The notes: generated by a model not told the origin, from the letters alone. DNA of 44,670 bases from a virus (IMGVR_UViG_3300031867_003838:1-44670); one strand, 5' to 3'; positions 6,609 to 44,400 are shown, counted from the stretch's first letter. Made by a program: numbers and translations.

Positions 6609-7360
6609 ACAAAAGAAAGATTGCTGAACTATTGACAGACAAATTTGAAACGGTGGCGTTCAAAGAGTATCTGATAGATATGGCTGAGAAGATCCCGGAC
6701 TACTTCTTTACAATGCCGAGTTCTACTTCCGGCAAATACCACAACGCTACGCAGTGTCAGACATACGGCCAGCTGTACCATGTATTCATGTTTCAGAGTG
6801 TGCTTGAGCATCTGCTGCGTCTTGAGGGTAACAAGGAACGCTTTCCTATTACGCAGGAGCGTGACTGCATGAGATGTGTTCCGCTTTTGCACGATGCAGT
6901 CAAGTGTGGTTGGGACGGATCGCAGTATACGGTTCCGGATCATCCTGTTCTTGCGGCAAAGTTCGTGATGGATACTGTCGTTGAGCATGACATTGATCGA
7001 CAGTGGAAACTGATCATTGCAGATATGTGTGAGGCTCACTCCGGAGAATGGAACACTGATAGGTCTGGAAAGGTCATCATGTCAAAACCGAGGAATACAA
7101 GAGAATTCCTGATTCATGAGTGCGACATCCTGTCGAGCAGAAACGACCTTGACTGGAAGATCTCGGATGAACTGAAAGCACTTCTGCCGAGTCCTAAGCC
7201 GACTGTTGAGAACTATGTAATCCCAATTGGTAAGTACAAAGGCCGTGATCTCCTTGAGGTATTTGCGCTCGACAGAGATTACTGTAATTGGATGGCAGAT
7301 AACATTGAAAAGGAGCCGCTCAGGACGCTGGTGAGAAAACTTGTTTATGGGGAGGAATGA
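6605..7360 (+). CDS. HD-domain phosphohydrolase with a short C-terminal GKYKG domain
   Basis: SSTSGKYH, LLHDAVKCG (HD), AHSGEW, HECDILSSR; C-terminal IPIGKYKG...YCNWM. Confidence 0.8.
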   Translation: MNKRKIAELLTDKFETVAFKEYLIDMAEKIPDYFFTMPSSTSGKYHNATQCQTYGQLYHVFMFQSVLEHLLRLEGNKERFPITQERDCMRCVPLLHDAVKCGWDGSQYTVPDHPVLAAKFVMDTVVEHDIDRQWKLIIADMCEAHSGEWNTDRSGKVIMSKPRNTREFLIHECDILSSRNDLDWKISDELKALLPSPKPTVENYVIPIGKYKGRDLLEVFALDRDYCNWMADNIEKEPLRTLVRKLVYGEE

Positions 7361-10217
7361 TGTCGGAATATGGAGTTAAGTCTCGTCTAATAAATGCAGC
7401 TAGTATAGAAGAATGCAACCAGGGCGTGAGAAATAATCTTGACTCTAAAGACTGTCTTATTACGAATAGCTTGTTTCTTGACTGGTTGTCCAATAATGGA
7501 TTAAACGTTCATAACGGATGCACGCTGGATTGTTTAAGTTTAGCATTTGATTATGGAACACGAAGCTACGAAGACGAACGAAAACATGTTGATTCATTAA
7601 TTAAGAGCTGTGATCCGAATGATACTGAGAAAATGGAGCGTCTCAAGAATTTATCAGATAATGTCGAGGCGAATAAAGATAAGTATGTAAAGATATCAAA
7701 GGATAAGCTCCGCTATAAGTATTACACAGAAGGCGTAGTGATAAACTGGAGGCATTACAACAAAGATGGTACAGTGAGAAGTATTGAGCCAATAAAATAT
7801 AAGATGTTGTACAGGACGCCCGGAAAAGCCAAAGCCGGCAAGATCGTCGTAATCCGAGAGGAGCTGCATGAAAAAGCATTAAATTTTCTACGCATGGGAA
7901 TTGAGATGCCAGATGAAAATGCACCAATAGTTGAAATGGGGGCGTATTCTTCTTTGGTGACAAGCTCGATTATTGGATATGTTCCTATACCACCAGAAGA
8001 TATTTTAATTCTTGATGATTGTCCTGCGTCGTACAAAACAGATGTTATAAGCGTCGAAGTTAATGACAACAATGAGTGTATTGCTGTGCCGCGAAATGAT
8101 TACGTGATGGAGACGGACATGTTCGACGGATCCGCTCTTATTGATCGTGATTTGTTTCCTCCGTGGGCAGATGGCTATGTTCTACTTCGCCATCATATGA
8201 CAAAGTCAGCGGCGTTTCGTACTGATATTCAACAGTACTATAAAGATTATTGTGCAGAAAAAGGTATTGATTATGAAACATTCGTACTTAAAGACAAGTG
8301 GGGCAATCCTCATTTCGCAAAAGACATTAAACTGATAATGTCAACAAACAGTTGCAAGTGGCTGAAGTTTAATGTTTCATATGAATATTGGTGTAGTTGG
8401 GTCCATAAAAACGGTTGTTCCTTTGGTGTTGTCAAGACATCGCATAAATCTAAACTTGGCGATGTTCAGCAGATGTCATACCAAATGGTCAATGTACTTG
8501 GGATAGATAGTATGTTTTCAGTTATGCATACTACTTCAGAATACATCAATGCATTACAAACAGATGATGCTGTGTTTTTGGAATATCTTGAACGCAACAA
8601 GAATTTTTCAAATGATTATGATGTATTGATAGCACTTGTAAACCACAACAGTGATTTCATAAAGAGCGAATATTTTAAAGAGAGAAGACAAACAATAATC
8701 CAGGCGTACATTAAAAATATGAAAACTGGCAAGCTTATTCAAAACGCAGATAATCTCACGTTGGTTGGGTCGCCTTATGCTTTCTTGATGCATAGCGTAG
8801 GGCTAGATCCTCATGATGATCCTACGTTCGAACATGAGGATGGAGCAATTCAATGTTATACTAATAGGTTTGACGACGGTGAGTATTTGGCGGAGTTCAG
8901 AAACCCGTTCAACTCAAGAGAGAATCTTGGATTCTTGCATAATCATCGTCATCCATTGTTAGACAAATACTTCTTGTTAGGCGATTGTATTATTGCTGTC
9001 AATGTAAATGGTACTGATTTTTGTGAGAGGAATAACGGTTCTGATTTTGACAGTGATAGTATTTATACCACAAACCAGTCAGACATAGTAACACACGCAC
9101 AGTATTGCTACAAAAACCATAAGACCATAGTCAATAACATACCAAAATCATCAAAGACATATTCAAATACAATGAAAGATTTTGCGACAGTAGACAATTC
9201 ATTAGCAAAAGCACAAGTTGCGATTGGCTCTAGCTCGAATCTCGCACAGTGCTGCTTGACATATACATTCAACTACAATGACCAAAAGTACAGAGATTAT
9301 GTATGCATCTTGGCGGTGTTGGCTTAAAGTACTGGGCCAGTTGAATGGAGACATTCTTCTAAAGATATCCGAAGGATTGCTGGAAAGCTTTGGCTAATCA
9401 GCAGGCGAGCCGGATGAACCTTTTTGTAATTCGGAAGCTTCAGAGACTAACTTTTTGAGGAGGGATACCAATAAGAAAAGACACGAGAATCGGACACCCT
9501 AACGTATAGTCGAGGGTGATGATATAGTCCAATCGGCCTGACAGGTCAGGCGCTCAGATAAAGAGCTGAGCATAAGCGATGCAGGCCGCTATAGATAGTA
9601 CGAAAAGACTTTACTCAGTAGATATACCATCAGAAATCAACCGTATAAAGTCAGATATGGATATTAAGAGTAATGGATATCCGTCGTTCTGGCGAAATAT
9701 ACGCCCCGGTTTCAATGGGTTTATAAATAACAAACTCAAGTGCCCAATGAACGAATTGGCGCATTACAAGGCTCAGAGGCCACATCATAATCCAAATCCA
9801 ATCCCAAATCAGGAATTCTTTCATAAACATGAATTAACAGATAGCAGGCGCAAATGCAGGCGCGTTGAGAATTTAATAGAGAAGTATTCGCTGGAATTAT
9901 ATGACTATAATATGTCAGATGACAAAGAGTATGAATCATTCCTTTTACTTCGCAAAGATTTTGACGATCTTATTAGTGACATCCAGCGTACATATATATC
10001 AAATAATTACCTCGGTCTCATGTCGTGGCTGATTGATCGCGCTCTTCTGATCACTCCTGACGTCGTCAGAACAGTTGATCAGATGCAGTCGACGCTTCAC
10101 AAGAACAGATCCTTGCTTTTGAAGGTACTGTATGACGTGAGTCCGAACCAGTTTCTGCAGTGTTTCGTGCAGAAAAGTGAACAGTGCGGCGATTTTGATC
10201 GACGAAAACCCGCATAA
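7357..10217 (+). CDS. yonO: YonO-like single-subunit RNA polymerase; exons 7357-9324 and 9582-10217 (about 867 aa spliced)
   Basis: MFDGSALI, FRNP and catalytic NGSDFDSD (DxDxD) motifs; removing 9325-9581 gives a continuous ILAVLA|QAAIDSTK; position upstream of HU and the morphogenesis genes matches SPbeta yonO-yonN. Confidence 0.85.
9325..9581 (+). mobile_element. Group I intron (257 nt, ORF-less) in the RNAP gene
   Basis: Exon ends in U, intron ends in G. P1: UUGGCU pairs with GGCCAG (U.G at the splice site). P10: CUG/CAG. Core elements UUGCUGGAAA, AAUCAGCAG, CAGAGACUA and GAUAUAGUCC (P7 GACUA/UAGUC). Confidence 0.92.
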
Positions 10218-13813: not shown

Positions 13814-14728
13814 ATGGAAGAAAAGATCTGTGGTATTTATAGAATCACTAATACAGTAAATGGTAAGTCTTATGTTGGTCAAAGTGTTGATGTTAAGTCT
13901 CGTATAAGTCATCATCGTTCTGAGCTGAGAAATAATAGGCATGAAAATAGTTATTTACAAAATGCGTGGAACAAATACGGTGAGGAAAATTTCACATTTG
14001 AAATATTAGAACGATGTTCTCGCAATGAATTAGATGAACGAGAGATTTATTATATTGATCACTTTAAGACCTACAAGACTTTTAATGGATATAATTTAAC
14101 TCTCGGTGGAGATGGGACCCATATTGTCAACGAGGTATTACAGTTTGATGCATATGGAAATTTTATAAAAGAATATGAAAATGGAATAGTTGCAAGCGAG
14201 GAACTTAATATTAGCGCGGGTACAATTTACGCGTGCCTAACAAAAAGAATCAAGAAGGCTGATATGTATATTTTTGTGTATAAATCAGAATATAAAGATA
14301 AGTCTTCATTAGAATGGTGGCTCGATTCAAATAGAAATACTCCCGTTGAACAATATGATTTGTATGGCAATTTATTAAACACGTGGGCATCATGTGCTGA
14401 AATAGTTAGAGAGTTGGGGTTTAATCCAATTCAATGTTTAATTCATGTAACAAAATCATGCCATGGTTATATATGGAAAAGAATTAATGATAATGACATT
14501 CTAATTACGCCTGAATACTGCGAGGCGGTTCGAACCGCTGTAGAGAAGAGAAAGAAAAAGAAAATATATCAGTATGATTTAGATAATAATCTTGTAGCTG
14601 TTTTTAACAGCACAGGAGAATTACAAAAGGAAGGATACAGCGATTGGGTGGTGAAAGAATGCTGTACCGGCATAAGAGAGCAATATAGAGGATACAAATG
14701 GAGTTATGAAGAATTAGAGGTGGCTTAA
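13814..14728 (+). CDS. Free-standing GIY-YIG homing endonuclease with NUMOD1-type repeats
   Basis: GIYRITNTVNGKSYVGQS...FEILE...EREIYYI; three [VI]xQ[FY]DxxGN-like repeats; AT-rich. Confidence 0.92.
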   Translation: MEEKICGIYRITNTVNGKSYVGQSVDVKSRISHHRSELRNNRHENSYLQNAWNKYGEENFTFEILERCSRNELDEREIYYIDHFKTYKTFNGYNLTLGGDGTHIVNEVLQFDAYGNFIKEYENGIVASEELNISAGTIYACLTKRIKKADMYIFVYKSEYKDKSSLEWWLDSNRNTPVEQYDLYGNLLNTWASCAEIVRELGFNPIQCLIHVTKSCHGYIWKRINDNDILITPEYCEAVRTAVEKRKKKKIYQYDLDNNLVAVFNSTGELQKEGYSDWVVKECCTGIREQYRGYKWSYEELEVA

Positions 14729-16053
14729 TGGCAAATGCTTTAGTTAAAAAGAAGAAGGCTGGACCTGCCCCTGCCCCAAAGATTACTGCGGCTGAAGCTA
14801 GAAGTAAGTTAGCGAAGCTTGAGAATGATTATGACAAACTTAAGAATGGTGCATATTGTTATATGTGCGATTCGTTCAAGGCAAAGACGCAATTTCATTC
14901 AAGTACTAATCCAAGAATACGAAGTGGCATAACGCCTATATGTAAAAGGTGTGCTTACTTACTTGCTGTCCCAAATCCAGATAAACCAATGACAAATGAA
15001 GAAGCGGAAGAAAATGCCAAAATAGCATTACGTTATTTGGATAAACCATTCATTAGATCTTTGTGGAACGCAAGTATTAGGGAGGGTGAGAACCTGGCAT
15101 CTGGTAAAGTGCGAGGAACAGTGTTTGCCTACTATATTAAGAATATTAGTATGAACCAGTATTCTGGTTTAACTTGGGATGATTCTGATATGTTTAAACA
15201 ACCATCAGAGATTAAAACTTTCGAGACCAAAACTGAGGATGAGCTGATTGACGAGCATGCAGGTCAAGATACCTTTGAAAGTTTTAAAAAGAACAAATTC
15301 GATGTGATTAGATTATTGGATTATGACCCATTTGAAAAAGAAGCTGTTGAGGATCAACCATTTTTATACTCACAATTACTTGGGCTACTTGATGCTTCAG
15401 AAGATGCCAATGAGGATATGATGCGTGTATCTTCTGCTATTCAGATAGTAAGGGCATTTCTCCAGTCTGCAAAGATTGATGATACGATTGCAAAGTTGAT
15501 GGGTGATGTGCAGATGATTACGCAAAATTCAGCGACTATCAAATCACTTCAAGATAGTAAACAGAAGTTGACAAACATGATTACTAATCTTGCAGCAGAG
15601 AATTGTTTGAGTTTGAAGAATAGTAAGAAAAGTACTAGGGGATCTGATAGCTGGACAGGGAAAATTGCCGCCATACGGGGGCTTAACCTCAGAGATGGAA
15701 TGGTCAACGGATTTGATATTAAAACAGCTCGTGCTATGGCTCAGGTTCAGGAGATCAGTGATGCATCTATAATGAAACAATTAGCCCTTGATGATTCAGA
15801 ATGGTCTGACATAGTTGCGGATATGAGGGTTGATAATCAACGTCTTCGGAAAGAGAAGGAAAGTTATAAGGAAATTAATCGCATTCTACTAAAAGAGAAT
15901 TTGGACTTAAAGGATTATGCTGAGGAGAAAGGTATTAAACTTCCGGAAGGCACTCCATTAAAAGAATTATATTCCGTATTCAGTGATGAAGATGATGGAA
16001 TAGTATTTGCGGGAGGTGAAGCGGACGATGAGTCAGATAATCCTGCCGTATGA
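14728..16053 (+). CDS. Putative terminase small subunit / packaging accessory protein with N-terminal Zn finger
   Basis: CYMC...ITPICKRC; overlaps the start of TerL; assignment rests mainly on position. Confidence 0.55.
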   Translation: MANALVKKKKAGPAPAPKITAAEARSKLAKLENDYDKLKNGAYCYMCDSFKAKTQFHSSTNPRIRSGITPICKRCAYLLAVPNPDKPMTNEEAEENAKIALRYLDKPFIRSLWNASIREGENLASGKVRGTVFAYYIKNISMNQYSGLTWDDSDMFKQPSEIKTFETKTEDELIDEHAGQDTFESFKKNKFDVIRLLDYDPFEKEAVEDQPFLYSQLLGLLDASEDANEDMMRVSSAIQIVRAFLQSAKIDDTIAKLMGDVQMITQNSATIKSLQDSKQKLTNMITNLAAENCLSLKNSKKSTRGSDSWTGKIAAIRGLNLRDGMVNGFDIKTARAMAQVQEISDASIMKQLALDDSEWSDIVADMRVDNQRLRKEKESYKEINRILLKENLDLKDYAEEKGIKLPEGTPLKELYSVFSDEDDGIVFAGGEADDESDNPAV

Positions 16054-18855
16054 TGAAGAGTTTTATAATGAGTATGGAGTATTTATAAAGCCAGTTACAT
16101 ACCCTATGTCAAGTAAAAAGATAGATGGGTTTATTGAGATAGCTAAGATCCAAAAGTATTTTCAATGTAATCCAGTAAAGTTTATTGACATCATGTTCAA
16201 TATTGAATTGCTTGATGCTCAGGCACTGATCGTGCAACGCTCCTTTTTTACTAAGGTCGTATGTTGCGTTTGCTCGCGCGGAATCGGAAAGAGCACAGTT
16301 ATTGATTTGGAGCTGATGGCAAAAGATATGTTGTTTAGCAACTTATGGACATATATAGCTAGTGGTTCTGGTTCTCAAGCTGAACAAACATTTCTAACTT
16401 TGGAGAGGTTGGCAAATGATAATATAGAAACTTTTCAGGGTTCAACTGGGAAGATCTTTAAGAATGAACTGGTGATTAAGAATGCAACCGGTGATGGGTT
16501 TTCACATAACCCAAATGGTTTTACTTATGAGACATATAATGGGTCTGCTACATGGACTCTAAATAGTAATGTAGATAAGAAAAGAGGTAAATCACAACAC
16601 CACGTAAGCCTCGCCTGCCAGAAATGGCAGGATTATTTATTTAGTGCGGAAGAAATCTGGAATGCTGGAATGCGAACCAGAGTGGAAGGCCAACAACAAC
16701 ATGTTGGCCACACGCAGAGCGTAGAGATTGAAACTGTGTTACAGAATATAACATCTCCAAGAGTCCGCGCCCCTAAACGTTAAGACGTAGGTGAAAAGGT
16801 ACGCCGAACTTATGCGAAGGATAAGCATAAGATGTGGAGGATAAAAAGCTTCCACGGTAACATGATTGATGCGTGGTTCTGTTATATACGATGAAGCGCA
16901 GCACTTGGACGAAAATCTTATAAATGTGTACGATGCATTCGCGATTGTTGATAAAAACTTAAAGACTGGTAAGGATGAGAGTGGTCGTTCTATTGATCCG
17001 ATTAGACAAAGAACATTTGCCACCAATATTCCAAACCAGAGATTCTATATTGGAAGCGCAAGTTCTGTAGATATGCGTTTTTATAAGATATATAGGGATG
17101 CCGCCAAGAAGCAAATTGAGGGTGATCCTGATTATTGTGTATTACATATTGATTGCGAGCAAGCGTTTCACCCGACATTACATGGTGAAACCATTGCTCC
17201 GCTTTTGCAGAAGTCTCAAGTCGAAGCAGAAATGCGAATAAACCCCGAAAAGGCAAAACATATAAATGCGAATACAATGCGAAGTATTTATATTTACCGT
17301 CTATGAATAAGTCAGATATTTCATAGATTATTATTGAGGAATTAAACTGGGAAGCCCTTTGCTAGGGTAATCAGAGAGTGAAGGCTGTTGCTAAAACAAT
17401 AGTCAACCGCAACGCATAGAAAGTGAACCTGGTATTGAGATGTATCAGAATATAATCTTTCCACGAGTCCTCAACCCCGCTGATATAATATGCAGAGTAT
17501 TATGGGGAATAGATATGCTGAGCTAAATTGTAATGATTTAGATATCAAGATAAAAAGCTTGATGATAACAAATCTGAAGAAGGGAATATTATTGCATTTT
17601 TACAACCGAAGCTGGGACTGATGCCATTATTAAACGTGGTGTTATTACACGGAACGAAGAGACGAGAAGTCCATTACTGTATAATGATACAGGAGACAAG
17701 AAGTTTATTCTTGCATACGACCCTGCAAGAAGTTATGACAATTCTGTTATAACGGTATTAGAAGTTTATGAGGTTGAACAAGTAGATGGCAGTAAAGATT
17801 TGCGTGCAAGAATTGTCAATTGTGTAAATCTTATGGACGTAGGGAAGAAGACAAAAACTCCGATGCAAACGCCGGATCAAGTAAAGTATCTCAAACAGAT
17901 GATACTTGATTATAATGGCGGAGCTGATGCATATGGCAACATTGTTGCCGTTGTTATTGACGCGGGTAGTGGTGGAGCAGGCGTAAATATAGCCGACTAT
18001 CTGATGGAAGATTGGGAAACTACTGATGGTATAGTACATCGTGGTTTGATAGATCGAGAATATTCAAAAGATTATGTCTCTCGTTTCCCGAACGCAGTTG
18101 ACAAAATTAAGCTATTATCACCAAGTGCTTATAAGTCAGTTATCTATGAATCAATGATAGAAATGTTAAACCAAGACAAAGTTAGTTTTACGGCGTCTTA
18201 TGACAATAAAGGATACCTTACTATTTTTGATGTAGATAATGAACTTATGGCTAGGGAGAAAGAACGTATTATTGCTGAGTTGAAAAAGAAAAAACTTAAC
18301 CAAATAGATTTTGAGGACAAACTCCATGAAGAACTAAGTAAGATTCAATCTGTTAACACAAAGATAGTTAAATTGGATTGGAAGGAAGAACTTGCTTTGG
18401 CAAATATAGACGCTTTAAAAGAAGAAGTTGTGAGTATGGTTCGTAAGCGACGCGAGACTAAAGATAGTTTTGAGCTATCACCAGAGAAAGCCAACAGAAT
18501 GCATAAACGTCATTGTGCCTATGCGGCATAATACATAATCCGCATAGTAAACCCGATCTGATTGACTTGGAAACCCAGAAGTGGGCAACAGGGCGCAAGT
18601 TTAAATACAGCGTGAACGACTGAGCGATTGGGGATCACTTCGGTGATTGTGCGACAGTCTGGACTCATACTATAACAAAATGAAATATGAGATTAACAAA
18701 GGGATGACAGAAGCTATACGCTCGCAATGGCATCATGGTGTTTGGCAGAAGAACGCCGCAAACTTATTCTCAACAAGAAACCAAAGCAGGATCCGAAGGA
18801 TCTCGCGAAGCAGTTGATTATCCGTCGTGGTAGTTATGCTGGAAAGATTATATAA
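16028..18855 (+). CDS. terL: Terminase large subunit; exons 16028-16588, 16869-17254, 17577-18504 and 18703-18855 (about 675 aa spliced)
   Basis: Walker A SRGIGKS; Walker B restored across the first junction (KKRG|MRGSVIYDEA); NPEKA|RREYYCIF; nuclease YDPARSYDNS, VIDAGSGG and MH|DDRSY restored by splicing. Confidence 0.9.
16589..16868 (+). mobile_element. Group I intron terL-1 (280 nt, ORF-less)
   Basis: Exon ends GAGGU and pairs with IGS GCCUC; P10 ACCACGUA/UGCGUGGU; P7 GCGUA/UACGC; terminal G. Confidence 0.88.
17255..17576 (+). mobile_element. Group I intron terL-2 (322 nt, ORF-less); boundaries could alternatively be 17262-17583
   Basis: P7 GCAUA/UAUGC; shares GAAUAUAA..UCCA.GAGU and GAUAAAAAGCUU...UAACA segments with terL-1; excision restores NPEKARREYYC. 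Confidence 0.82.
18505..18702 (+). mobile_element. Group I intron terL-3 (198 nt, ORF-less)
   Basis: P1 GCAU/GUGC; P10 GUCAUU/GAUGAC; P7 GACUG/CAGUC; excision restores the HDDR nuclease motif. Confidence 0.88.
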
Positions 18856-20488: not shown

Positions 20489-20545
20489 TACCGGCGATCA
20501 ACAGGTGATCGTCGCTACCGAATAATAGTTATTCGTAAATGAGTA

Positions 20546-20574
20546 GAGGTAGTGCCGAAGCACTACCTCGTTTT
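20546..20574. terminator. Probable bidirectional terminator between the portal gene and antisense peptide 1
   Basis: GAGGTAGTGC-CGAA-GCACTACCTC then GTTTT on +; the loop reads c(UUCG)g on -. Confidence 0.75.
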
Positions 20575-20590
20575 AAATTGTACGTGCAGT

Positions 20591-20650
20591 TTATCTGCGA
20601 CGAACCTTTACCCGCACAGTAGTGCGAATTTTAACCGTGACTTTAGCCAT
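20591..20650 (-). CDS. 19-aa cationic beta-strand peptide MAKVTVKIRTTVRVKVRRR
   Basis: SD AGGGAGGG 8 nt before ATG; own promoter and terminator; paralogue directly upstream. Confidence 0.8.
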   Translation of the reverse strand: MAKVTVKIRTTVRVKVRRR

Positions 20651-20729
20651 GGCGTCCACCCTCCCTTCTATATGCAGATTGCGGCAGTTGGTCTACCGCT
20701 CACTTTTGAGAAGGGAGTCGTACAATTGT

Positions 20730-20758
20730 ATTATACGGTGGACGTCACAAGACGTCAA
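20730..20758 (-). promoter_or_regulatory. Sigma-A promoter for peptide 1
   Basis: Minus strand TTGACG-17 nt-TATAAT. Confidence 0.85.
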
Positions 20759-20793
20759 TAAAGAAATGGCAGTGAGTGGACACTGCCATTTCT
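20757..20793 (-). terminator. Terminator of the peptide-2 cassette
   Basis: Perfect 13-bp stem AGAAATGGCAGTG/CACTGCCATTTCT followed by TTATT on -; abuts the next -35 box. Confidence 0.75.
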
Positions 20794-20802
20794 CCGCGCA
20801 GA

Positions 20803-20886: not shown

Positions 20887-20946
20887 ATCTTTGCCCTCCT
20901 TTCCACCGTCACTCAAAGGCAACGAGTTGGTTAGGAGGATAAAGAT

Positions 20947-30646: not shown

Positions 30647-30661
30647 TAGGAGGAAAATATT

Positions 30662-32265: not shown

Positions 32266-32535
32266 ATGTATACAGATACAAGATATGTCGTTGCGACAAC
32301 ATTAGGAAAAAGATTATATGTGAGACGAGAGCCGAAAGCGGCACAGAAGTCCAATACCAAAGTAGAGTACGCCTACTCTCTCACTGATGATCTGAAGGAA
32401 GCGACTAAGTGCACAAATAAAGAAACTGCTAAAACTCTAATTGAATATTATGTATCTGAAACACAATCAACCAAATCATTTGCCCCAAAGAAGTTGATTG
32501 TAAACTATGAGTTGGCGGATGAACCAGATGGGTGA
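32266..32535 (+). CDS. Hypothetical protein (89 aa)
   Basis: SD AAGGAG. Confidence 0.65.
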   Translation: MYTDTRYVVATTLGKRLYVRREPKAAQKSNTKVEYAYSLTDDLKEATKCTNKETAKTLIEYYVSETQSTKSFAPKKLIVNYELADEPDG

Positions 32536-33022
32536 TACCAGGGTTGTCGCTATAGATGGGGCAACAAAGATTACTGGAATGGCATTAGCCGTTAATGGAG
32601 ATTTAAAGGATTACGGTAAGATCGATCTTTCAAGTAATACGGATCCGACTGATGAACGATTACTGCTTATGGGGAAAAAGATTTTGCAGGCGTTAAATAT
32701 CTGGAAGCCAGATATCATATATATGGAAGAGCCACAAGGGCACGGAAAGAACTTGGCCGTATCCGGTATGATTCATGAGTTAATAGGTTTTGCAAAAGCA
32801 TGGGCTGTACTTAATGATGCTTTTATAGAAACTATCGCCCCTTCAGAGTGGAGAAAGTTTCTAAACTTTAAACAAGGTGGAGGTGTCAAACGCTCTGAGC
32901 TTAAGCAGCAAAGCATGGATTATGTACAAGATATGTTTGGATTAAATGTAACGGATGATGTGTCAGATGCTATCTGCATACTCTGTGCATTTATACAGAA
33001 ATACGAAGAGGAAAATGAATAA
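32528..33022 (+). CDS. ruvC: RuvC-like Holliday junction resolvase
   Basis: VVAIDGATKITG, IYMEE, PSEWRK, DDVSDAICI acidic motifs. Confidence 0.85.
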   Translation: MGDTRVVAIDGATKITGMALAVNGDLKDYGKIDLSSNTDPTDERLLLMGKKILQALNIWKPDIIYMEEPQGHGKNLAVSGMIHELIGFAKAWAVLNDAFIETIAPSEWRKFLNFKQGGGVKRSELKQQSMDYVQDMFGLNVTDDVSDAICILCAFIQKYEEENE

Positions 33023-33528
33023 TGGATATAGGAATTTTTATTGACGAATACACGAAAGCTAAGGTAGATAAAGCTAAGGCTGATTTGGTTAAGAAGCATG
33101 TTAAGGCGACCTATGTACCATATGAGACTAAGGTCGCAGAAGCAAAGAACATTCTTAACTTCTGCTGCTATGATAAGGATGGTAAATTTAGAATTAATAG
33201 TACTTTGAGATATGTTTTATTTATCAAGGTTGTCGTAATGTTATATACAGATCTCGAATGGAATGCTGAAAACTTCATGATTCAATTTGACCTCATGGAA
33301 CAATACAAGATTGTTGAGGAGATCCTGAAAGAAATTGGTGATGATGTTCAAAGTTTTGAAACGGTTTTGGCAATGGTATATGATGACATCGTTACCAATG
33401 AAAGAAGTTTACTTAGCAGAATTGAATCTCTTGTTAACTCCGCCAAAGTAACGTTTGATGGGCTGCTAGATGAACTGTCTAACAATGAAGAGTTGACGGA
33501 TTTAATTGATAAGCTAAATCGGAAATAA
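33022..33528 (+). CDS. Hypothetical helical protein, possibly a tail assembly chaperone (168 aa)
   Basis: ORF coupled to ruvC; function inferred from position only. Confidence 0.6.
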   Translation: MDIGIFIDEYTKAKVDKAKADLVKKHVKATYVPYETKVAEAKNILNFCCYDKDGKFRINSTLRYVLFIKVVVMLYTDLEWNAENFMIQFDLMEQYKIVEEILKEIGDDVQSFETVLAMVYDDIVTNERSLLSRIESLVNSAKVTFDGLLDELSNNEELTDLIDKLNRK

Positions 33529-33530
33529 AC

Positions 33531-33602
33531 TTAATACGTATGTGTAGCAAAACTAAGTGCGATCAAAGGAAGGGCTATCAAAATGAACGCCAGTGTATCC
33601 AT
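33531..33602 (-). CDS. 23-aa hydrophobic peptide MDTLAFILIALPLIALSFATHTY (type I toxin-like)
   Basis: Very strong SD AAGAAGGAGGTGA before ATG; minus-strand TAGCCA-17 nt-TATAAT promoter at 33667-33695. Confidence 0.72.
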   Translation of the reverse strand: MDTLAFILIALPLIALSFATHTY

Positions 33603-33635
33603 AGGGTTCACCTCCTTCTTTATGGACGTTAAATC

Positions 33636-33669
33636 GGCGGCGGCAAGAGATGCCGCCGTCTCTTTTATT
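33636..33669 (+). terminator. Intrinsic terminator overlapping the 5' UTR of the antisense peptide
   Basis: GGCGGCGGCA-AGAGA-TGCCGCCGTC followed by TCTTTTATT. Confidence 0.72.
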
Positions 33670-33747
33670 ATACTATGATTTTTGTGGAATGGCTATAACA
33701 GGATTATACCTGTTCCAGAGAAATAATAACCGCGAGGAGGATTAAAT

Positions 33748-34770
33748 ATGAGCGTACAAAAACTTTCGCCGGTTACTGATGAGCAGTGGGCGCAAGTCCC
33801 CTCGCAGAATCGGAAATTATATGATGATTATTTTTTAGACAATGTTGAGTTGAGTTCTCGGACGGTCGAGACATACAGAAGTAATTTAAAGATTTGGTTC
33901 TGGTGGTTATATCAGAACTATGGAGATAAGTTACATACGGATGTGAAGAGCCGTGATTATAAACGCTTCCAGAATTGGTTAGTGGATCGAGGATGTAGTT
34001 CGTCTGATATTAAGACGAAGCGATCTACTATCTCATCTCTTAATAACTATATTATGGTTTACTACGAGGATGAATATCCAACGTTTAGGAACTTTATCAA
34101 TGCATCAATCAAAGTTCCTGAGAACGCATTCGTTAATGAGAAGAATCCGCCAACAAAGGAAGAGCTTGATAAGATGATCGAGGATCTTGAAGGTAGTGAC
34201 TTATGGGATAAGTATCAGAAGATTGCATATCTTAAGTTCACATTCACTACTGGATGTCGTCGGGCAGAAACGAGACAGCTGCTTAAAAGTGATGTGATCG
34301 GTAATGAACCTATTGTTAAGACAATTACTGTGACAGATGAGGACGGCAACAAGGTGCAACGTGAGGCGAAATACTATCTCACTCACGAGATCAGATGTAA
34401 AGGACGTGGCAAGACTGGTAAAGTCAGACGACTTAAGTTCGACGAGGAGACGTACCAGGCTTTGTTAAAGTGGCTTGAGCAAAGGGATGATGATTGTGAG
34501 TATGTGTTCGTGACAAGAGATGGGAACAACGTCAGACAGGTTTCGTTGTCTACATTCAATCAGTGGGGTTCTGGGATTTTCACTAAACTGCTTGGAAGAC
34601 GGTTCCACCCTCATTGTTTGAGAGAAGCGAGGGCTACGGACGCTGTAGTTGAAAGAGGAATTGACATAGAAAAAGTACGTCTTTTATTGGGACACGAGGA
34701 CAGTTCAACGACTCGCATATACATCTGTAAGAATTCCGAAGATGATGAATCAGATGAATTGTTTATATGA
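33748..34770 (+). CDS. Tyrosine recombinase (XerC/D family; SPbeta YomM-like position)
   Basis: Catalytic set R (TGCRRAE), K (KGRGK), HxxR (HCLR), H (LGHED) and Y (TRIY); N-terminal SAM-like domain. Confidence 0.9.
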   Translation: MSVQKLSPVTDEQWAQVPSQNRKLYDDYFLDNVELSSRTVETYRSNLKIWFWWLYQNYGDKLHTDVKSRDYKRFQNWLVDRGCSSSDIKTKRSTISSLNNYIMVYYEDEYPTFRNFINASIKVPENAFVNEKNPPTKEELDKMIEDLEGSDLWDKYQKIAYLKFTFTTGCRRAETRQLLKSDVIGNEPIVKTITVTDEDGNKVQREAKYYLTHEIRCKGRGKTGKVRRLKFDEETYQALLKWLEQRDDDCEYVFVTRDGNNVRQVSLSTFNQWGSGIFTKLLGRRFHPHCLREARATDAVVERGIDIEKVRLLLGHEDSSTTRIYICKNSEDDESDELFI

Positions 34771-35423: not shown

Positions 35424-38400
35424 ATGAATAACGAGTATATTTTTACCATAGACGTAAATGATAGGCCAGGTAATAAAAAGTTAGATCAGTTTGAAGGTCG
35501 TGTAGAACGATTAAATAAGAATGAAGTCAAACTGCAAATTGATGTCGAAGGGTTAGATAGAGAGAAACTTCTTGACTATAAGAAGCTCGCTGCTTCTGTC
35601 GATCCTAAGATGACAATACAGATGGAATATGAGTACGACAAGAAAAGTATTGATGTCATGAAAAAAGACATCTCAAATCTTGGAGAACTCAAGCTTCATA
35701 TTGAAAAGGGTAATGCGACTGCTGTTGAGCAGTACATTAAACAAACAATCGAAAAACTTAGTAAAGGTATTGAAGCAGGAATTAATCCAAATGAACTTAT
35801 AAAAGATTATAAGTTCGCCATGGATGTGATAGCTCAATACGTCGAGAGTAAAGATATATCCCCCGTTAGTGATAAGACATTTGCTAAACTGCAAGAAGTT
35901 GCAGAGCAGATACAAGGATTTGATAAGAAGTACACGGGTGATACGAAAAGTTCGCTTGATACGATCATTACAAGAAGAACTGAAGAATATAAATCGATGA
36001 TCAGTGATTTTGAAGACGACATGAAGCGGCTATCCAAGATGGGCGCTGTCGAATTCACTGGTGAACCCATCGATGGTTCTAAGATAAAAGAATATATCAA
36101 AGACTATGTTCGTCTTATTAAGTTAAGTGGAGAGCTTAAAAAAACAAACCTTGATACACAAATTTCTCAAGTAAATGACAATGCTAGTTTAAAGGAAAAG
36201 GTTGAAGCAATTAAAGGTTTAGCCAATGAAGCTAGAATCACAGCGGAAGAAATTGAGAAGATTAATAAAGCCATTGCTAGTGGTGATACTTCTCAAGATT
36301 TAAAAGAACAACTTGGATTGTTGCAAAACCTATATGAAAGACAGCTTACAGCATACAATAATTTATTACCATCCAATCAGCAAGAAAGAGCCACTTTCGC
36401 ACAAAATTATTTACCTGATGATTGGCAGAATTGGACTATTAATAATAAAGAATTCAATGTAGCTATAACAGAAGCAGCAGCTGAATTTCGGCGACAGATT
36501 GGGCATGCATTTCAAGAAGCAACTGCAAATCTTGGCGAGGATTTGATAAAGAGCCTTGGTATAGATAAACTTCATTTTGAACCCGGTATCATCTTTGGTG
36601 ACGAGATGGAGGAATTTGTTGAGAAACTTTTTGATGCTTCGATTAAGACTGGAGAGGCTATAGAGAAGGCTGGCAAAGAAGCCAAAGAATTTGCAGATGA
36701 GTTTACAAAAGCTGAGGAAGACGCTACTAAATCAAGTAAGAAGCTTGGAGACCAAGCCAAAGAGACTGGCGAAAAGACAAAGGATGCAAATGATAAAGCC
36801 TCAGCTTCTGCCGATGAACATAGTGAAAAAGTTAAAAAACAAGCGTTAAGTGTAGAGGAATTATCTCAAAAGTTAGAACGACTTAAACAGTTGCAAAATA
36901 CTCTTGATAGAATGGAGGTTGCTCCATTCTTTGGAGACGACGACACGGCGAGAGCATCAAGGGTTGAGGAGCTCGCACGGCAATATATTCAGACTCTTGA
37001 AGAAATAAATCGCATAGAAAATAGCGGTGAGTCTCAAGAAGTCATCAAGCAAAAGATAGGTCTTCTTTCAACATTAGCATCTAAACAGATGGAGGCTATG
37101 AATACCAGCATTCCGACGGGCGTTGATCGTAATGAATATCTTAAGAGTGCTGTCAATTTTGACTTTGGCACAGATGAGGCTGTTAATTCATTAAATAAAG
37201 TTAAGGAAAGGGCGAGAGAATTTGCTGATGATGTTAAAAGAGATTTTTCCAACATTGCCATGGAGATGTATAAAAGGTTCCCTGATGTTGATAGAGGTAG
37301 ATTATTAAATTCTGCTAGGACAAATGTATCTGCGCTCGAAGAATTAGTTGACGTTATGGAACGTATTATGAATGCTTCGAAGGGAGCATCACAAGGGACT
37401 GATGATCTATCTGATTCTCTCAAGAAGAATGAGAATGCAGCAGAAGGAGCCGCTGACGCCGAGAAGAAAGAGGAACAAGCTACACAATCCGGCACCGATG
37501 CCACCAATGAGAAAACCGAAGCGGATAAGAAGGGGGCCCAAGCCGCGGAAGAAAAGGCTAAAGCCGAGAAAGAAGCTGCTGAGGCAACGAGACAAACTGC
37601 AGAGGAGCAAGACAAAGCAAAACAGGAAGCTGAAGAACTGGCAAGAGCCGAGCAAGAAGCTTTAGATAAAACAAAGCAGGCTATAGATGAAAAGACACAA
37701 GCTGAGTCAGAGGCCGCTGATAAATCTAAACAGGCTGCCGAACAACAGATCCAGGCAGAACAGGAAATCGCCGATGCTACTAGGAAGGCTGCAGAAGAAC
37801 AGGAAAAGGCTGCTCAGACTGCTGTTGAAACTGCTGAGAAAAAGATAGAGGCTGAGAAGGAAGTTACCGAGGAAATCAAGAAAGCAGCTGAAGAACAAAG
37901 ACAATTACAGGAACAACAATCTCAGACGCAATCACAGACAGGTGATGACCAGAAGAAGATTGACGTACTTAAAGAAGAAATAGATTTATTTGGTGATCTT
38001 GGCGATGCTTCTAAATTTGCGGATATGTCTTTGGATGAGTTAATCACTAAGTTTAAAGAACTTCGTGAAATTGACGAAATGTCAGTTATGGGCAGATTAT
38101 CGGATGTTTCCGACTTATCCGATGGAAAACTAGGAAAATATATTAATGAGCTTGATCAGAAATATGGCGAGATTATTAATACTATTATCAGATTAGAAAA
38201 AGAGGAAGCAAATACTGAGGGAATTGAAAAACGAATATCTGTACTTAAAGAATATGGTCGATCGCTTGCAACTTATATTGATGAAATTAGTCCTAATATA
38301 AATGGTGATGCATATGAAAAATGGTATAAAAAATATGTAGGCAAATCACCATCTGAATTATTATCATATGAGTTTTATGATATTACGCGTGATGTACCTA

Positions 38401-41400
38401 CAGATGATTGGGACGACGTTCAAGCAGCCTTACGTGCAAAAGGTATTGAAGATAGTAGATCCGTTCTTCCTGAGTATGAATACATTAATGCTAATGCATT
38501 AAAACTGTATATAGGTATGCTTGAAGATTTATCTAATACATCAAAAGATGCGACGGAAAGGGTAGATGGACTATTTCATGTATTAAAGAGAACAGATACT
38601 TGGAATGGTTATAAAAATATACATAAAGAAGAATCTTTAGGCCTTTTTACTCAAGATCAATTAGAAACTCTGTTGAAAGGCACAAAGTCACAAGACATGA
38701 CCTGGAATGTTACACGTGGCAAAAATGACATTAGTTATGAGGTCATGACTAAGTACGGTGAACTATACACCGGAAATGGTATTGTAAACATCGATGATAT
38801 TCTCCCTGAATTATTAAAGCGTCGAAAAGAAGCTCAAGCAGAATTCGAAAGACAACTCGCCTCAATGGAGGCAACAAACCAACAAAATCAACAGCAACAT
38901 GATGAAACCGGCTCTTCTATTGAGAAAGAAACTGAGAAGAGAGAAAAACTTTCTGAGGAAATAAAAGAGCAACAGCAAACAACAGAAGGCGAATCACAAA
39001 CATCCAAGGAGAATGCCCAAATCCATGAAGAGTCGGCTGCATCTCAACAAGCAGATGGTGAATCAAGACAGAAGACAACTGATGAGATCAAGAAGCAACA
39101 GCAGGCAACAGAAGGCGAAACATCTACATCGAAAGGAAGTGCCGATCAACACGAATCAAATGCTGGATCACAGCAGGCAGAAACTGAACAGCGAAGTAAA
39201 GCCACTGATCAGATCGGAGAACAAACTGCAAAGACCGAAGCTGACACTAATGCTACTAATGAGAATAAATCTGCCCATGAAGGACTGACTACAACTCAGC
39301 AAGAAGAAGCTGATGGTAGGCAGAAGGTTACCGACGGATTAACTGAGCAAGTACAACGGACTGAGGCTGACTCCGATGCTGTCAAAGGTAATCAGACTGA
39401 GCATAGTAAGACGGCTGATGTCTTGAAAGAAGAAGGATCTGAAAGAGATACAAACGCTGACAAGATAAAAGAAGGTACAGCCGCAATTGAAGCTGATACT
39501 GCTGCAGCAGACGAGAACGCAAAGGCCCATAAGGAAATGCAGGATGTCAAAGAACAAGGCGGCACTAAGACTACAGGCAGTGGCGAAACTTTAACTGGTG
39601 CAGACTCTAATGCACTCAATGAGTTAGTTACTGCTCTTGAAAAGATTGTATCATCTGCTGCAGATGCGACTGCCAAGAAAGATGAGTTGGCAGCAGCCGA
39701 GAGAACTCTCGCAACTGATACCGGTGTATCTATTGTTAGACTCAACGCGGAGGCAGGCGCACTTGATAGTGTGAGGCGTGCTGCTGATGAAGCGGCTAGA
39801 GCGAAGGAACGATTTATATCTTCTAATCAGACACTGGCTAATCAGACTCGTGATTCATCTGATGCGTTGAACAAAGAAGCGACTGTATTAAGAGAGATCG
39901 CTTCAGCTACTCAGACTAAAGCTGTTGCAGCAAAATTGCCAACAAGCAATGCTGGCTTAATCGTAGATAAAGAAGCAGTATTTTCCGCGTACGACTCATA
40001 CGAGGCCAAGGGCGCTGCAACATATGATACAGACAGATACAACAAAATTACTGCTGCTCTTGCGGCAGATAATCCTGATTATAACAAGATAGCTAAGCTG
40101 ATTGAGACTGGTAATGATGCTGTTGATGCTGCTATTCGCAAACGGGAAGATCTTGAAGGTAGGCTCGCCAAGGCGAATGAGAGAATTAAAGCTCTTGAAG
40201 CTAAAGGTATAGCGACATTTGATGCTGATAGTTATGCAAAACTGCAGAAGTCTCTTGATAAGGTTGATACCTCTGCTACCAAACAAACAGTCACAGCTCT
40301 CGAAAATGCTATAACGCAAACTGAAAAGGATTACGAGAAAACATACCGTGAGCTTTATGACTCTACTCTTAAGCGTTATGAGGAGATGCAGCAGAATGAA
40401 TTCTATCAGAAATCTGATAAACTTTCAGGTCTTGCAGCAAAAGTAAAAGTATCTCCTAACGATGGTGGAATGCTCAATGAGTTTATTCAAGAGCTTGATG
40501 TCGTAAAGAAAAAGATTGAAGAGTCTGAATCATTATTAATTAGTTATAGACACGTTCTTGAGGATGGTCTGAATTTAAGCAATATTATCAATGGTGATAG
40601 CCATTTGACTGAAAAATTCAAGCCACAGTTAGATCAACTTGAAGAGCAGCTAGGCACCATGGAATTGAACCCGGAGTTAGTGACAAAGGCATTTGAGGGT
40701 CTTAAGGATCTCAGCCAAAGTGTTGATAACGAGTTAACTCAATTGGGTTCTTCTGTTGTAAGTATAATGGCTGAGATTGACAGTCTGACGAAACAACGCT
40801 CTGAGTATATGAAGAATGTCAAATTACTTGGTAGTGCTGACTCATCAGATGACCCAAATTATAAGGATATAGCTGCATCAGTTCAACAATACGAAACAAG
40901 ACTTAAAAACGTTCGCGATGCTGTTGCCGGAATAAATAGAACGTGGGACGAGAATAATGAGAGCGTTAAGAAAGCGAATGCGGCTCTTGATGATTATGAA
41001 AATAAGATAAAGAATGTTTCTCGAACCGACATTACCAAGAATGCTCAGGGGATGATTGACAGTATTGATAGGGTTCTTAAGCAGAAGGGTTCTAGTGGTC
41101 TTACAAAGGCTTATACCGAAGAACTTGAAGAGCTCAAAGGTAAGATGCAGGAAGCTATTCGGTATGTCAATAATTTAGGAGATCAACCGATTGACCCGAG
41201 TAAAGTAAGAGCATTCTTTTCAGCTTTCGAAGAAGGTAAAGCAACCGTTAAAGGTGCTAGTGATCAGATCAACAAGCTAGCAACTCTGAGTCAGTTGGAA
41301 GGGCTTCTTTCTAAGATCAATGATGATATTGCCAAAGGTGCAAATAGAGGTGTACTCGGTAGGGAGTATGCAGATCTCAAGGCACAGGTTGAATCTGCAA

Positions 41401-44400
41401 TCAATGAGATCAAGAACTGTACCGATGCAAGCAAAATGTTAAGTAAGATCGACTTCCCAAACTTCGCCAACCTTCAGAAAGATTTACATAATTCAGCTAT
41501 TGAGTCTGGAGCATTAAAAGGCTCAATGGTATCAAAGATGGCAGATGCCATTAATAATCAATCAGCACAATTCTTGGCAACGTACTTTAGTTTCCAGGAT
41601 ATTATCAGATATACAAAAGAAATAACGAATGCTGTTGTGCAGACTGATAGCGCTCTTACGGAATTGAAGAAAGTTTCTGATGAGAGTAATGAAAGAATAC
41701 AACAGAGCTTTAAGAAGTCTGCTGAGACTGCGCAAGAACTTGGTAATACTATTACAAATGTAATCAATAGTACAAGTGATTGGGCGAGGCTTAATATACT
41801 AGGTCTCACATGCGGCGACGCATGTTAAATAAATCCTCTCAAATCGGTAGAACTCCAGAGATGGACAATACCGAGGGTAACGCAAGGCATGTCTTGCATC
41901 CCGTAACGATCACAGTGGTATGAGTAATTGTACCACGTATGGGGACATCTCTATGAGATGAAGGTATGATCTGATCTGCAAATATAATCGAATAATATGA
42001 AATTGCAGAGGATGGCAGAAATGACCATCCCCTTTTCTTTTGAAAAGAGTAACAAAATGTGGTTATACAATTGATGAAGCGGAAGATCTCGCAAGGGTTA
42101 CAACAATATTACAAACTGTCGGTGACAATATGACGCAAGAATCTGCGTCTGAAGGTCTTGTTAGTATTCTCCAAGGATTCCAGCTTGATCCGTCAACCGC
42201 TTTACGAGTAGTCGATTCCATAAATGAAGTGGCGAATCGAATGCCGATTGACACGAGCGGGATCACAGAGGGATTGAAAAGATCAGCGGCAAGTTTCTTT
42301 ACCGCAAATACCGATCTGAACAAATCGATCGCATTGATTACAACATCCAATGCAGTGGTTCAGGACCCTTCATCTGTCGGCACTATGTTCAAAACAAGCA
42401 GTGTTTTTATGTACAGAAATGTGCATATTGCACAAATTTAATTGCAGGTAATACCTAAAGCCTCGCACCACAATAATCGGGAAACCAGATTATGATGGGA
42501 CGAAAGTAGAAACAACGCGAGGATAGCATAAGGCCAAAAACCTAAGTGCTGTTACAATGGTTGTTCTGCAGCGAAGCACCCTAACGTTATCCGTAGACCA
42601 TACGGCATCAGTCGAGGGTGAACGTTCAACGACTAGATTCACGTCGAGTTATAGGCAGGAGAATAAGGGTGGAAATCCCGAATACCTATAACAATAATCG
42701 TAGGGCGCAATCACATATGGCGTGGGTGAAAACCCCTTAAATCGAAAAGGTTTGCTCCTCTTCTACTATTGTAGGAAGGATGAAGAAATAGTCTGGTCTC
42801 ATGCGAAAGCATGAGATTTTTTATGCTGTAAAATAAATAATTGGGAAATAAAAGAAGAAAATATACTGAAGAGGATTATAAGATGAAATGCGAAGAGTTT
42901 GGATTAGAATACATCGGTTTTCATAAAGAGTATCATAAGGGTACTATGATTGATTATATTTGCCCAACGCATAGAGATAAAGGTATACAGAGTACTGAAT
43001 GGAGCCATTTTAGATTGTATGCCCATGGATGTAGATATTGTTCTGGGCGCGGAATGACGACTGAAGAAGCTCAGAAGAAAATAAAGAATCCAAACATAAT
43101 ACTAATATCACCTTATCAAGGCGCTGAAAAACCGGTTCAATGTCATTGTAATGTGTGTGGTAATGATTGGATATCTAATCGTCCAATGGATTTATTTCGT
43201 AGAGAAGGCGGATGTCCTGTGTGTGGAGAAGTAAATCGCAGATTAAATAGAAGAAACACTCATGAGGACTTTGCTAAACGGTTAGAGACGATCAATACAA
43301 ATATTGAACTCGTCGGCGAGTATACCAGAGCACATGATTTTATAAAATGTAAATGCAAGATTCATGGCATTGAATGGGAGTCTATAGCATGTAATCTTCT
43401 AAATGAAACTGCTGGGTGCCCTATATGCAATAGCTCAAAAGGTGAAAGAGAATTAATCGAAGCTTTAATATCATTGAATGTTAATTATACTACTCAAAAG
43501 ATTTTCAAAGATTGTAGAGATAAATTACCATTACGTTTTGATGCTTTTGATATAGATAGAAATATAGCGTTTGAATTTCAAGGGGAACAGCATTATTTTC
43601 CAGTCGATTTTACATTTAATAATCCTGATAAAGCTAAAGAAGATTTTGAGGCTTTGCAGAGGAGAGATGGTATTAAGAAAAGATATTGCGAAGAAAATGA
43701 TATTAAGCTCATATGCATACCATATTGGGAACGCGGTAATGTATTGAAATACTTAATTGAAAGTGTAGATGAATATAAGGAGGTTAATACAGCATAATAA
43801 ATGATGCGATTTGTGACCGCATCAAACATTTCGGCTTAGTGCTAGAATTCGCGGATCAAATATAGAGTAAACTTTTGCTCCCCCGTATGGCGACATGCGG
43901 GTAAACAATCGGCTTAATACGGTGAAAGTCCAGAGATGGATAACACCGTGGGTAAGATTTTAATTTATTAAAAATCCCGTAACGACCACAGTAGCATAAG
44001 TAATTATGCCACGTATGCCGATCATCTCTATGAGATGAAGATATGGTCTGATCTGCAAATATAATCGAATAATATGAAATTGCAGAGGATGGCAGAAATG
44101 ACCATCCCCTTTTCTTTTGAAAAGAGTAACAAAATGTAAAGGAATTAGGAGAGGAAGAAGACGAGTTTACTAAGTCATCTTCAAAACTTCGTAGCACGGT
44201 CAAAGCCATTACCGGTTTTGACATTATGAAAGATGCAAGTACTTATAAAGATATTTATGAAATACTCGATGGTATTGGCAAAAAGTTTAAAGACTTAAGT
44301 GATATTGAGCAGGCAGGATTGCTTGAAGCACTCGGCGGTAAAAGAGCGTCGAATGCTTTGGCAGCTGTTTTAAATAATAGTGAAATGCTCGAAGAAGCAT

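Follow-up and report, generated by a model that had tools for sequence, protein, structure and literature searches.

How can a phage obtain an RNA polymerase, a terminase, a virion protein and a tape-measure protein from genes that are each cut into pieces? The question is raised by IMGVR_UViG_3300031867_003838:1-44670, a stretch of 44,670 bases (hereafter the window) that forms the first part of a linear viral contig of 108,670 bases, estimated to be 59% complete. Nine insertions of 198-1438 nucleotides (nt) each, 3,724 nt in total, interrupt four genes of the window: the RNA polymerase gene once, the terminase gene terL three times, a virion-module gene twice and the tape-measure gene three times. 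We consider it very probable that these insertions are subgroup-IA-like group I introns, that they are selfish mobile elements and that they are spliced from the precursor. The analysis draws on the interruptions themselves, their exact joins, the architecture of the RNA and the polymorphism among relatives. The exons and introns are given below with lengths in nt or amino acids (aa). ORF stands for open reading frame, P1 for the helix in which the guide of an intron would pair with the upstream exon, G001 for the closest relative, and numbers beginning with L for loci in other phages or viral contigs.

7357-9324, + strand, RNA polymerase gene (YonO/RdRP-like, two-barrel type), exon 1; homologue residues 18-670 of an uninterrupted 894-aa ORF of the closest relative
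9325-9581, + strand, intron RNAP, 257 nt, ORF-less; UGGCU/GGCCA with U.G; terminal G; join contiguous at residues 670/671
9582-10217, + strand, RNA polymerase gene, exon 2; homologue residues 671-890
16028-16588, + strand, terL exon 1; tblastn of the L001 TerL; ATG at 16028 predicted from the homologue start
16589-16868, + strand, intron TerL-1, 280 nt, ORF-less, family F2; junction scan; P1 GAGGU/GCCUC with U.G; core helices covary
16869-17254, + strand, terL exon 2; tblastn, junction scan and translation
17255-17576, + strand, intron TerL-2, 322 nt, ORF-less, family F2; join fixed by EKARREY, terminal G; 72% identity with an intron that the closest relative has in another gene
17577-18504, + strand, terL exon 3; 80% identity to L001 residues 326-635
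18505-18702, + strand, intron TerL-3, 198 nt, ORF-less, family F3; junction scan with U at -1 and terminal G; P1 GCAU/GUGC; homologous cores in viral contigs from other samples
18703-18855, + strand, terL exon 4; tblastn, junction scan and translation
27362-27859, + strand, virion-module gene ('neck', phrog_5251), exon 1; homologue alignment; exon end NSYTS the same in the closest relative
27860-28201, + strand, intron Neck-1, 342 nt, ORF-less; at this site the closest relative has an orthologue
28202-28216, + strand, 15-nt micro-exon GIWRD; gap-free alignment to intron-less homologues; contiguous with the next exon in the closest relative
28217-28567, + strand, intron Neck-2, 351 nt, ORF-less; P1 GAUUAG/CUAGUC with U.G; not in the closest relative
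28568-29224, + strand, virion-module gene, exon 3; homologue alignment and translation
35424-41791, + strand, tape-measure gene, exon 1; ORF, homologue alignment and junction scan
41792-42059, + strand, intron TMP-A, 268 nt, ORF-less, family F5; junction scan; P1 GAGGCU/GGUCUC; 77% identical to the L080 terL intron
42060-42395, + strand, tape-measure gene, exon 2; PF10145 PhageMin_Tail
42396-43833, + strand, intron TMP-B, 1438 nt; core at 42396-42815, followed by the ORF; junction possibly one base rightward
42841-43797, + strand, homing-endonuclease-like ORF in TMP-B, 318 aa; phrog_559 'HNH endonuclease' (1.8e-52) and phrog_7140 'intron encoded nuclease'
43834-43868, + strand, 35-nt mini-exon LSARIRGSNIE-; gap-free alignment to the uninterrupted tape measure of the closest relative
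43869-44136, + strand, intron TMP-C, 268 nt, ORF-less, family F5; U at -1, terminal G; P1 GAGU/GCUC
44137-44670, + strand, tape-measure gene, last exon; frame open through the window end and on to contig position 56324

The coordinates of the introns were obtained by tblastn of intron-less homologues against the window and by junction scans, in which every in-frame pair of cut points was scored against the homologue. Uninterrupted homologues from related viral contigs aligned contiguously across all nine joins. In addition, the best or equal-best junction ended the intron in G in 9/9 cases (by junction scan, or read from the sequence for Neck-1 and Neck-2), and a U stood at position -1 of the 5' exon in seven of the nine best junctions. 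Joining the exons of terL, the polymerase gene and the virion gene gave open frames in multiples of three with no internal stop. Altogether, the spliced exons make up about 23 kb of coding sequence that is free of stops and frameshifts, keeps the conserved motifs and is read throughout by the standard genetic code. The first-pass annotation, made from the sequence alone, had placed nine introns in exactly these four genes, and its positions proved exact or within a few bases. The comparison with intron-less homologues that it suggested gave the contiguous alignments just described. The terminal G that it reported was found in all nine introns, and the motifs that it expected excision to restore were recovered (KKRG/MRGS, EKA/RREY and MH/DDRSY in TerL; VLA/QAAID in the polymerase; the slash marks the join). 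It had also foreseen that gene callers would fragment all four genes, as plain ORF calling did. Finally, eight introns had been described as ORF-less, and only TMP-B indeed contains an ORF (42841-43797). The remaining eight, at only 198-351 nt, are too short for an endonuclease gene.

The alignments were examined gene by gene. The 894-aa polymerase homologue aligned to 7360-9324 and 9582-10202, and the spliced polymerase gene had 868 codons with a single terminal stop. A sequence search of Pfam and PDB gave no match for the family of this polymerase. Clusters that resemble it (features 0.98; structure TM 0.96-0.97) are named RdRP, partly with PF05183. A DFDSD motif is readable in the alignment, and a homologue in Enterocloster phage PMBT24 bears the annotation RdRP. 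The label 'late' would follow from the likeness to YonO. A homologue of polymerase exon 1 with 51% identity, in the human faecal phage contig MT837385.1 (6020-8699), matched in two pieces over 2.7 kb, which suggests that the gene is interrupted at another site there.

The uninterrupted 685-aa TerL (L001/G001) aligned in four blocks, at 16007-16588, 16869-17261, 17578-18504 and 18700-18852, and the spliced TerL would have roughly 680 aa. The motif EKARREY is invariant in 80 relatives and fixes the TerL-2 join within 2 nt; only the cut 17254/17255...17576/17577 gives this intron its terminal G.

For the virion-module gene, uninterrupted homologues of 421-435 aa were found in three relatives, and the spliced protein would have 389 aa. 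The name 'neck gene' given by the first-pass annotation was not confirmed, phrog_5251 being a family without known function. Neck-1 and Neck-2 are 71% identical over 244 nt and lie 15 nt apart; P1 of Neck-1 is AGU.../...GCU. The 15-nt exon must act as the 3' exon for one sister intron and as the 5' exon (P1: GAU) for the other. It may matter in which order the two introns are spliced or whether the 15-nt exon is skipped.

The 3229-aa tape measure of G001 aligned up to 41792, over 42055-42402 and from 44142 onwards, and the 11 residues missing in between are those of the 35-nt exon at 43834-43868. PF10145 scored 49.7 bits on exon 2 (cut-off 33.2), and both exon 2 and the last exon had tape-measure matches in PHROG. 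The tape-measure join comprised 6,305 codons without a stop when the exon before TMP-C was ended 12 nt earlier, without change of frame; the final junction adds four codons. An end of the 5' exon of TMP-C at 43856 was rejected. It gave a U.C mismatch and a deletion of four residues, whereas the cut 43868/43869 is gap-free and gives U.G and an intron of 268 nt. The spliced tape measure would have about 6,300 residues, roughly double the 3,229 aa of the closest relative, and includes an in-frame insertion of 420 nt at contig 44784-45203, just past the window. This insertion was considered as a tenth interruption and rejected as an intron; the frame is open to 56324.

The architecture of the insertions was that of group I introns. 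All seven P7 pairs with compensatory changes listed by the first-pass annotation could be read in the sequence: GACUA/UAGUC in RNAP, Neck-1 and TMP-B, GCGUA/UACGC in TerL-1, GCAUA/UAUGC in TerL-2, GACUG/CAGUC in TerL-3, GCUCA/UGAGC in Neck-2, GAUCA/UGAUC in TMP-A and GACCA/UGGUC in TMP-C. Furthermore, a canonical U.G pair was present in P1 of seven introns (RNAP, TerL-1, TerL-3, Neck-1, Neck-2, TMP-A and TMP-C). The Rfam model RF00028 matched five introns over its full length (positions 1-253; E 6e-15 to 0.03). RNAP (66.9 bits, E 6e-15) and Neck-1 (50.2 bits) scored above the gathering score of 50 bits, and TMP-B (46.4), TMP-C (39.1) and Neck-2 (24.6) scored below it. TMP-A and TMP-C are twins of 268 nt with 85% identity and an identical last 90 nt, and their P7 is changed on both strands.

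Covariation was assessed in two families. The TerL-1/2 family alignment held seven sequences, namely TerL-1, TerL-2, the introns of L076 and L077, an intron in a virion gene of G001, and those of phages phiR1-37 and Goe21. RNAalifold returned P3, P4, P5, P6 (with an outer extension), P7.1, P7.1a and P8, and both sides were changed in 27 of the 39 pairs. P7, which forms a pseudoknot with P3, was added to the model by hand and is paired in 7/7 sequences. By our own count with P7 added, 208/210 cells were canonical and 17/30 pairs compensatory. As a control, the 3' partner was slid by 1-3 columns, which left 35-40% canonical cells and 3-6 compensatory pairs. The P4-P5 core of TerL-3 is conserved in insertions of viral contigs from other samples, and within this family covariation was seen in P3, P7 and P8. 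Among the sequences compared, P7 occurs as GACUG/CAGUC, GACUA/UAGUC and GACUU/AAGUC, P3 as CCCGAUC/GAUUGGG, UUUUCUC/GAGAAAA and UCUUCUC/GAGAAGA, and P8 as a different hairpin in each lineage. These pairs were counted per sequence; the MAFFT alignment misplaced the hairpins and its column-wise counts were poor.

All nine introns have extra hairpins after P7 and before P8. In the TerL-1/2 family, P7.1 and P7.1a are backed by compensatory changes among the seven sequences, and RNAP, Neck-1, TMP-B and TMP-C have inserts of 25-110 nt at the post-P7 place in the Rfam alignments. In the classification of Michel and Westhof, extra hairpins between P7 and P8 are reportedly the hallmark of the phage-type subgroup IA. 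Judged by hairpin position alone, the nine introns appear subgroup-IA-like.

We compared the interruptions with those of relatives in a census of 80 terL loci. terL was uninterrupted in 76/80; three loci carried one intron each (L076, L077 and L080), and one locus ended at the contig end. L076 and L077 hold a homologous intron at the TerL-1 site, and the terL intron of L080 is TMP-A-like. A large protein collection contained about 2,000 full-length terL homologues without interruption. An intron-less terL allele at 95% identity or more was not found, the best being 82%. In G001, the polymerase, terL and tape-measure genes are without introns, and Neck-2 is also absent. G001 does carry Neck-1 at the same site (L084, G001:50641-54306, minus strand), as a copy of about 1.4 kb with a 368-aa endonuclease ORF (phrog_4645, 1.5e-59) 3' of the core. 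The ORF of TMP-B likewise lies 3' of the ribozyme core; Pfam recognised in it only CapR and DUF723 zinc-ribbon repeats, which are DNA-binding. G001 also has a TerL-2-like intron of 321 nt with U.G and terminal G (L099, G001:48500-51500, minus strand), in the homologue of the window gene 30650-31525, and this gene (virion structural protein, phrog_2729) is uninterrupted in the window. Members of the TerL-1/2 family also interrupt genes of Yersinia phage phiR1-37 and Bacillus phage Goe21, namely topoisomerase II in the former and gyrA in the latter. Such a distribution is the pattern expected if homing and occasional transposition were followed by loss of the endonuclease ORF.

A weak match to the TerL-1/2 covariance model was also recorded in G001 at L111:2909-3067 (31 bits, E 8e-5), which may be another intron. 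The same covariance model (R1) found no extra copies of this family elsewhere in the contig. RF00028, blastn with the nine introns, R1 and comparison with G001 revealed no further introns in the other 64 kb of the contig; introns that G001 shares and that these models do not see may still be present. No inteins were noticed in the genes examined.

Two genes of the region resemble homing endonuclease genes and stand apart from the introns.

13814-14728, + strand, free-standing GIY-YIG homing endonuclease gene; PF01541, NUMOD1 and PHROG matches; absent from the collinear region of the closest relative
23004-24167, + strand, free-standing endonuclease-like gene after the capsid gene; phrog_559, phrog_4538 and phrog_9084; absent from the closest relative; distantly paralogous to the TMP-B ORF

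Both were considered as intron ORFs and rejected; each lies between complete genes and is simply absent from G001.

Splicing itself and the route of spread we infer from these comparisons, and the course of events would be as follows. Each gene would be transcribed as a precursor, in which every intron would fold into a P3-P7 pseudoknot core with a P4-P6 domain and form P1 by pairing its internal guide with the end of the preceding exon. Removal would take place by guanosine-initiated two-step transesterification, and splicing would leave one open frame per gene for the polymerase, TerL, the virion protein and the tape measure. Virion production would then need nine splicing events. The present load would reflect an intron burst in the late region of one lineage, involving about five sequence families. 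The ORF-less introns may be remnants left after ORF loss, or may owe their movement to endonucleases acting in trans, for instance those of the two free-standing genes. We regard the introns as selfish because they lie in the most conserved codons, their families occur at other sites and in other genes and phages, they are present or absent among close relatives, and TMP-B keeps an endonuclease-like ORF.

Several observations weigh against this account. RF00028 gave no match for TerL-1, TerL-2, TerL-3 and TMP-A, even at E up to 10 in a 2.3-kb search of the terL region. The covariance search suggested by the first-pass annotation was thus successful for five introns and unsuccessful for these four. 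The model also misses the Neck-1 orthologue of L084 and the homologous introns of phiR1-37 and Goe21, and for this reason we take it to be poorly sensitive to introns of this kind. The four that it missed are assigned to group I by homology (TMP-A with TMP-C) or by covariation (the TerL-1/2 and TerL-3 families). In TerL-2, a C stands at -1 and the opposite guide base is A, where the sister intron of G001 has U.G. The 5' splice site of TerL-2 (window 17245-17300) may be an instance, in a natural group I intron, of cleavage at a C.A pair; such a pair can mimic wobble geometry. For TMP-B, the cleavage-site pair is C-G or A-U, depending on the one-base ambiguity of the junction. TerL-2 and TMP-B might therefore splice poorly or need help. 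In Bastillevirinae phages, 4/9 intron-bearing genes tested were spliced only in infected cells, so that 'self'-splicing of every intron is not assured (PMC11878797). Finally, the contig is a metagenome assembly at the completeness given above, and the viability of this exact genome is assumed.

The non-standard pairs bear directly on another possibility, namely that some introns are decayed, non-splicing ribozymes and that the genome is defective or belongs to a dying lineage with broken terL or tape-measure genes. The C opposite A in TerL-2 and the pair in TMP-B fit with decay, as do the near absence of P6 from TerL-3, the four introns missed by Rfam, the incompleteness of the contig and the classing of some relatives as proviruses. 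However, the exons of dead genes are expected to decay quickly, and here all exons are open over the whole coding length, their motifs are conserved, and every core helix is intact with its changes compensated. We consider decay very unlikely. Another idea, that the phage keeps all nine introns on purpose, builds on the first-pass annotation, which saw in them jointly a possible Mg2+/GTP-sensitive checkpoint on virion production. Group I splicing depends on guanosine and Mg2+, all nine introns lie in genes needed late (polymerase, terminase, virion protein and tape measure), and the searches of the other 64 kb of the contig found none. What decides against a checkpoint is that the introns are dispensable in the clade, as evidenced by the 76/80 uninterrupted terL loci and by G001, which lacks the seven introns of the polymerase, terL and tape-measure genes. 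Furthermore, placement in invariant codons is what homing endonucleases select, the same families occur in unrelated genes of other phages (topoisomerase, for instance), and no conserved regulatory feature was seen. This idea, too, is very unlikely.

It is also unlikely, in our view, that the introns or their endonucleases are kept for competition between co-infecting phages, through cutting of the intron-less alleles of relatives. Without an ORF, eight introns could do no cutting of their own, the three predicted endonucleases have no known cleavage specificity, and competition would be an added benefit and no alternative to selfish spread. Nevertheless, besides the endonuclease-like ORF of TMP-B the region does hold the two free-standing endonuclease genes, gut samples contain side by side many related phages whose alleles lack the introns, and a precedent exists in phage PhiPA3, where the endonuclease of an intron in the polymerase gene has been shown to act in this way (PMC11620839). 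Selfish, mobile group I introns that are removed by splicing remain the reading that we prefer.

How the load of such introns grew can be addressed only tentatively. Two of the four genes hold pairs of sister introns at different sites: TMP-A/TMP-C, with different guides and different exons, and Neck-1/Neck-2. Sister copies of the TerL-2 and TMP-A families are also found in other genes of relatives. It is conceivable, though on balance doubtful, that ORF-less introns multiplied within the lineage by ectopic transposition (reverse splicing or a related endonuclease-independent route), with the guide retargeted each time. If this were true, group I transposition and re-adaptation of the guide, including the C.A pair, could be followed stepwise in this clade as a natural system.

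Which phage carries these introns? On the + strand of the window the gene order is a polymerase-like gene, an exonuclease gene, terL, the portal gene, the capsid gene, a block of virion genes, integrase and resolvase genes, and the very long tape-measure gene. The window is best explained as coming from a large uncultured phage of siphovirus type that infects Firmicutes of the gut or rumen, and as covering its late and structural region. A megablast of 24 kb found no close cultured relative at the DNA level, and tblastn of two terL pieces against cultured phages gave no match. The polymerase exon as a query for related viral-contig loci gave no match either; the homologues came instead from the records behind the terL loci. 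A protein of the capsid region resembles proteins of Brevibacillus phage Sundance, of the Lactococcus 949 group and of phages of Bacillus and Clostridioides. For the polymerase, similar proteins occur in Enterocloster bolteae phages and in Clostridium phage c-st, and one terL homologue is named from a Ruminococcus genome. These protein similarities point to large siphoviruses of Firmicutes as kin, and Lachnospiraceae/Ruminococcus-type Clostridia are suggested as candidate hosts. At least 164 related contigs, with lengths of about 120-217 kb, are present in IMG/VR. Within the structural module, just 5' of the tape-measure gene, lie genes for a RuvC-like resolvase and for a tyrosine integrase (phrog_1, 6e-45; window 32507-34770). 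The gap between portal and capsid genes (window 20488-21253) is about 600 nt longer than the 192 nt of the closest relative, and has no Rfam match and no long ORF.

The first-pass annotation called the introns unusually dense. Nine introns in 36.8 kb, or 1 per 4 kb, are dense by the standard of T4-type textbooks, but not by that of the current literature on Zeta and Jug phages. The three introns of Twort orf142 and those of T4 td, nrdB and nrdD are said to belong to subgroup IA2, and some of them to be ORF-less, according to the accounts of Landthaler and Shub (1999) and Michel and Westhof (1990). The introns of the window resemble them, by description, in the extra hairpins between P7 and P8 and in that several introns may occupy one gene. 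Unlike them, they target morphogenesis genes and not nucleotide-metabolism genes. The introns of phiR1-37 and Goe21 are 58-68% identical to TerL-1/TerL-2 over the core from P3 to P9.1, with every core helix kept via compensatory changes. In contrast to TerL-1 and TerL-2, these copies have an endonuclease ORF upstream of the core and lie in DNA-metabolism genes. The gyrA gene of Goe21 (L096, 43681-47387) and the topoisomerase II gene of phiR1-37 (L097, 243406-247194) are annotated as two coding sequences each, with no intron feature; the ORF in between is annotated as 'endonuclease' in phiR1-37 and as 'hypothetical protein' in Goe21.

Genomes of the crAss-like Zeta group hold up to 14 introns and 3 inteins (PMC7886860). 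The Zeta and Delta introns were recognised via endonuclease domains and occur with recoded stop codons (PMC7886860), whereas here 8/9 introns are ORF-less and the code is standard. The Jug phages of Bacteroides/Phocaeicola carry 18.5 mostly ORF-less introns per genome, averaging about 206 nt, and metatranscriptome reads confirmed splicing of 37 of 76 predicted introns (PMC12880540). The window shares with them short and mostly ORF-less introns, a terL in pieces (two or three there), stand-alone HNH and GIY-YIG endonucleases nearby and genes that look fragmented (PMC12880540). However, the Jug phages are 360-402 kb in size and infect Bacteroidota (PMC12880540), whereas the present contig has 108.7 kb, its clade relatives have 120-217 kb, and its kin are Firmicutes siphoviruses. 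Here, unlike in the Jug phages, the introns are packed in 37 kb and include the tape-measure and YonO-like polymerase genes among their targets. Cluster J mycobacteriophages have introns in capsid and tail genes (PMC3706429). These too are group I introns of virion genes present in only some members; the phages there are large temperate siphoviruses, and splicing occurs in late expression (PMC3706429). Cluster J has one to two introns per genome (PMC3706429), as compared with nine here. In Bastillevirinae phages, 45 introns were found in 37 genes, some of them spliced only in vivo (PMC11878797).

A new mechanism is not established by these data. What is particular to the window is the local density, the host group, the tape-measure and YonO-like polymerase targets, the 15-nt and 35-nt exons and the pairs of sister introns. 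Automatic annotation of this clade will give broken terminase, polymerase and tape-measure genes. Given that the standard Rfam model misses 4/9 introns, intron loads in phage metagenomes are probably under-counted. The pattern of intron-rich gut phages is extended here from Bacteroidota phages (crAss Zeta and Jug) to a large siphovirus of Firmicutes, and the hundreds of intron-less relatives make the clade suited to studying the gain, loss and retargeting of introns.

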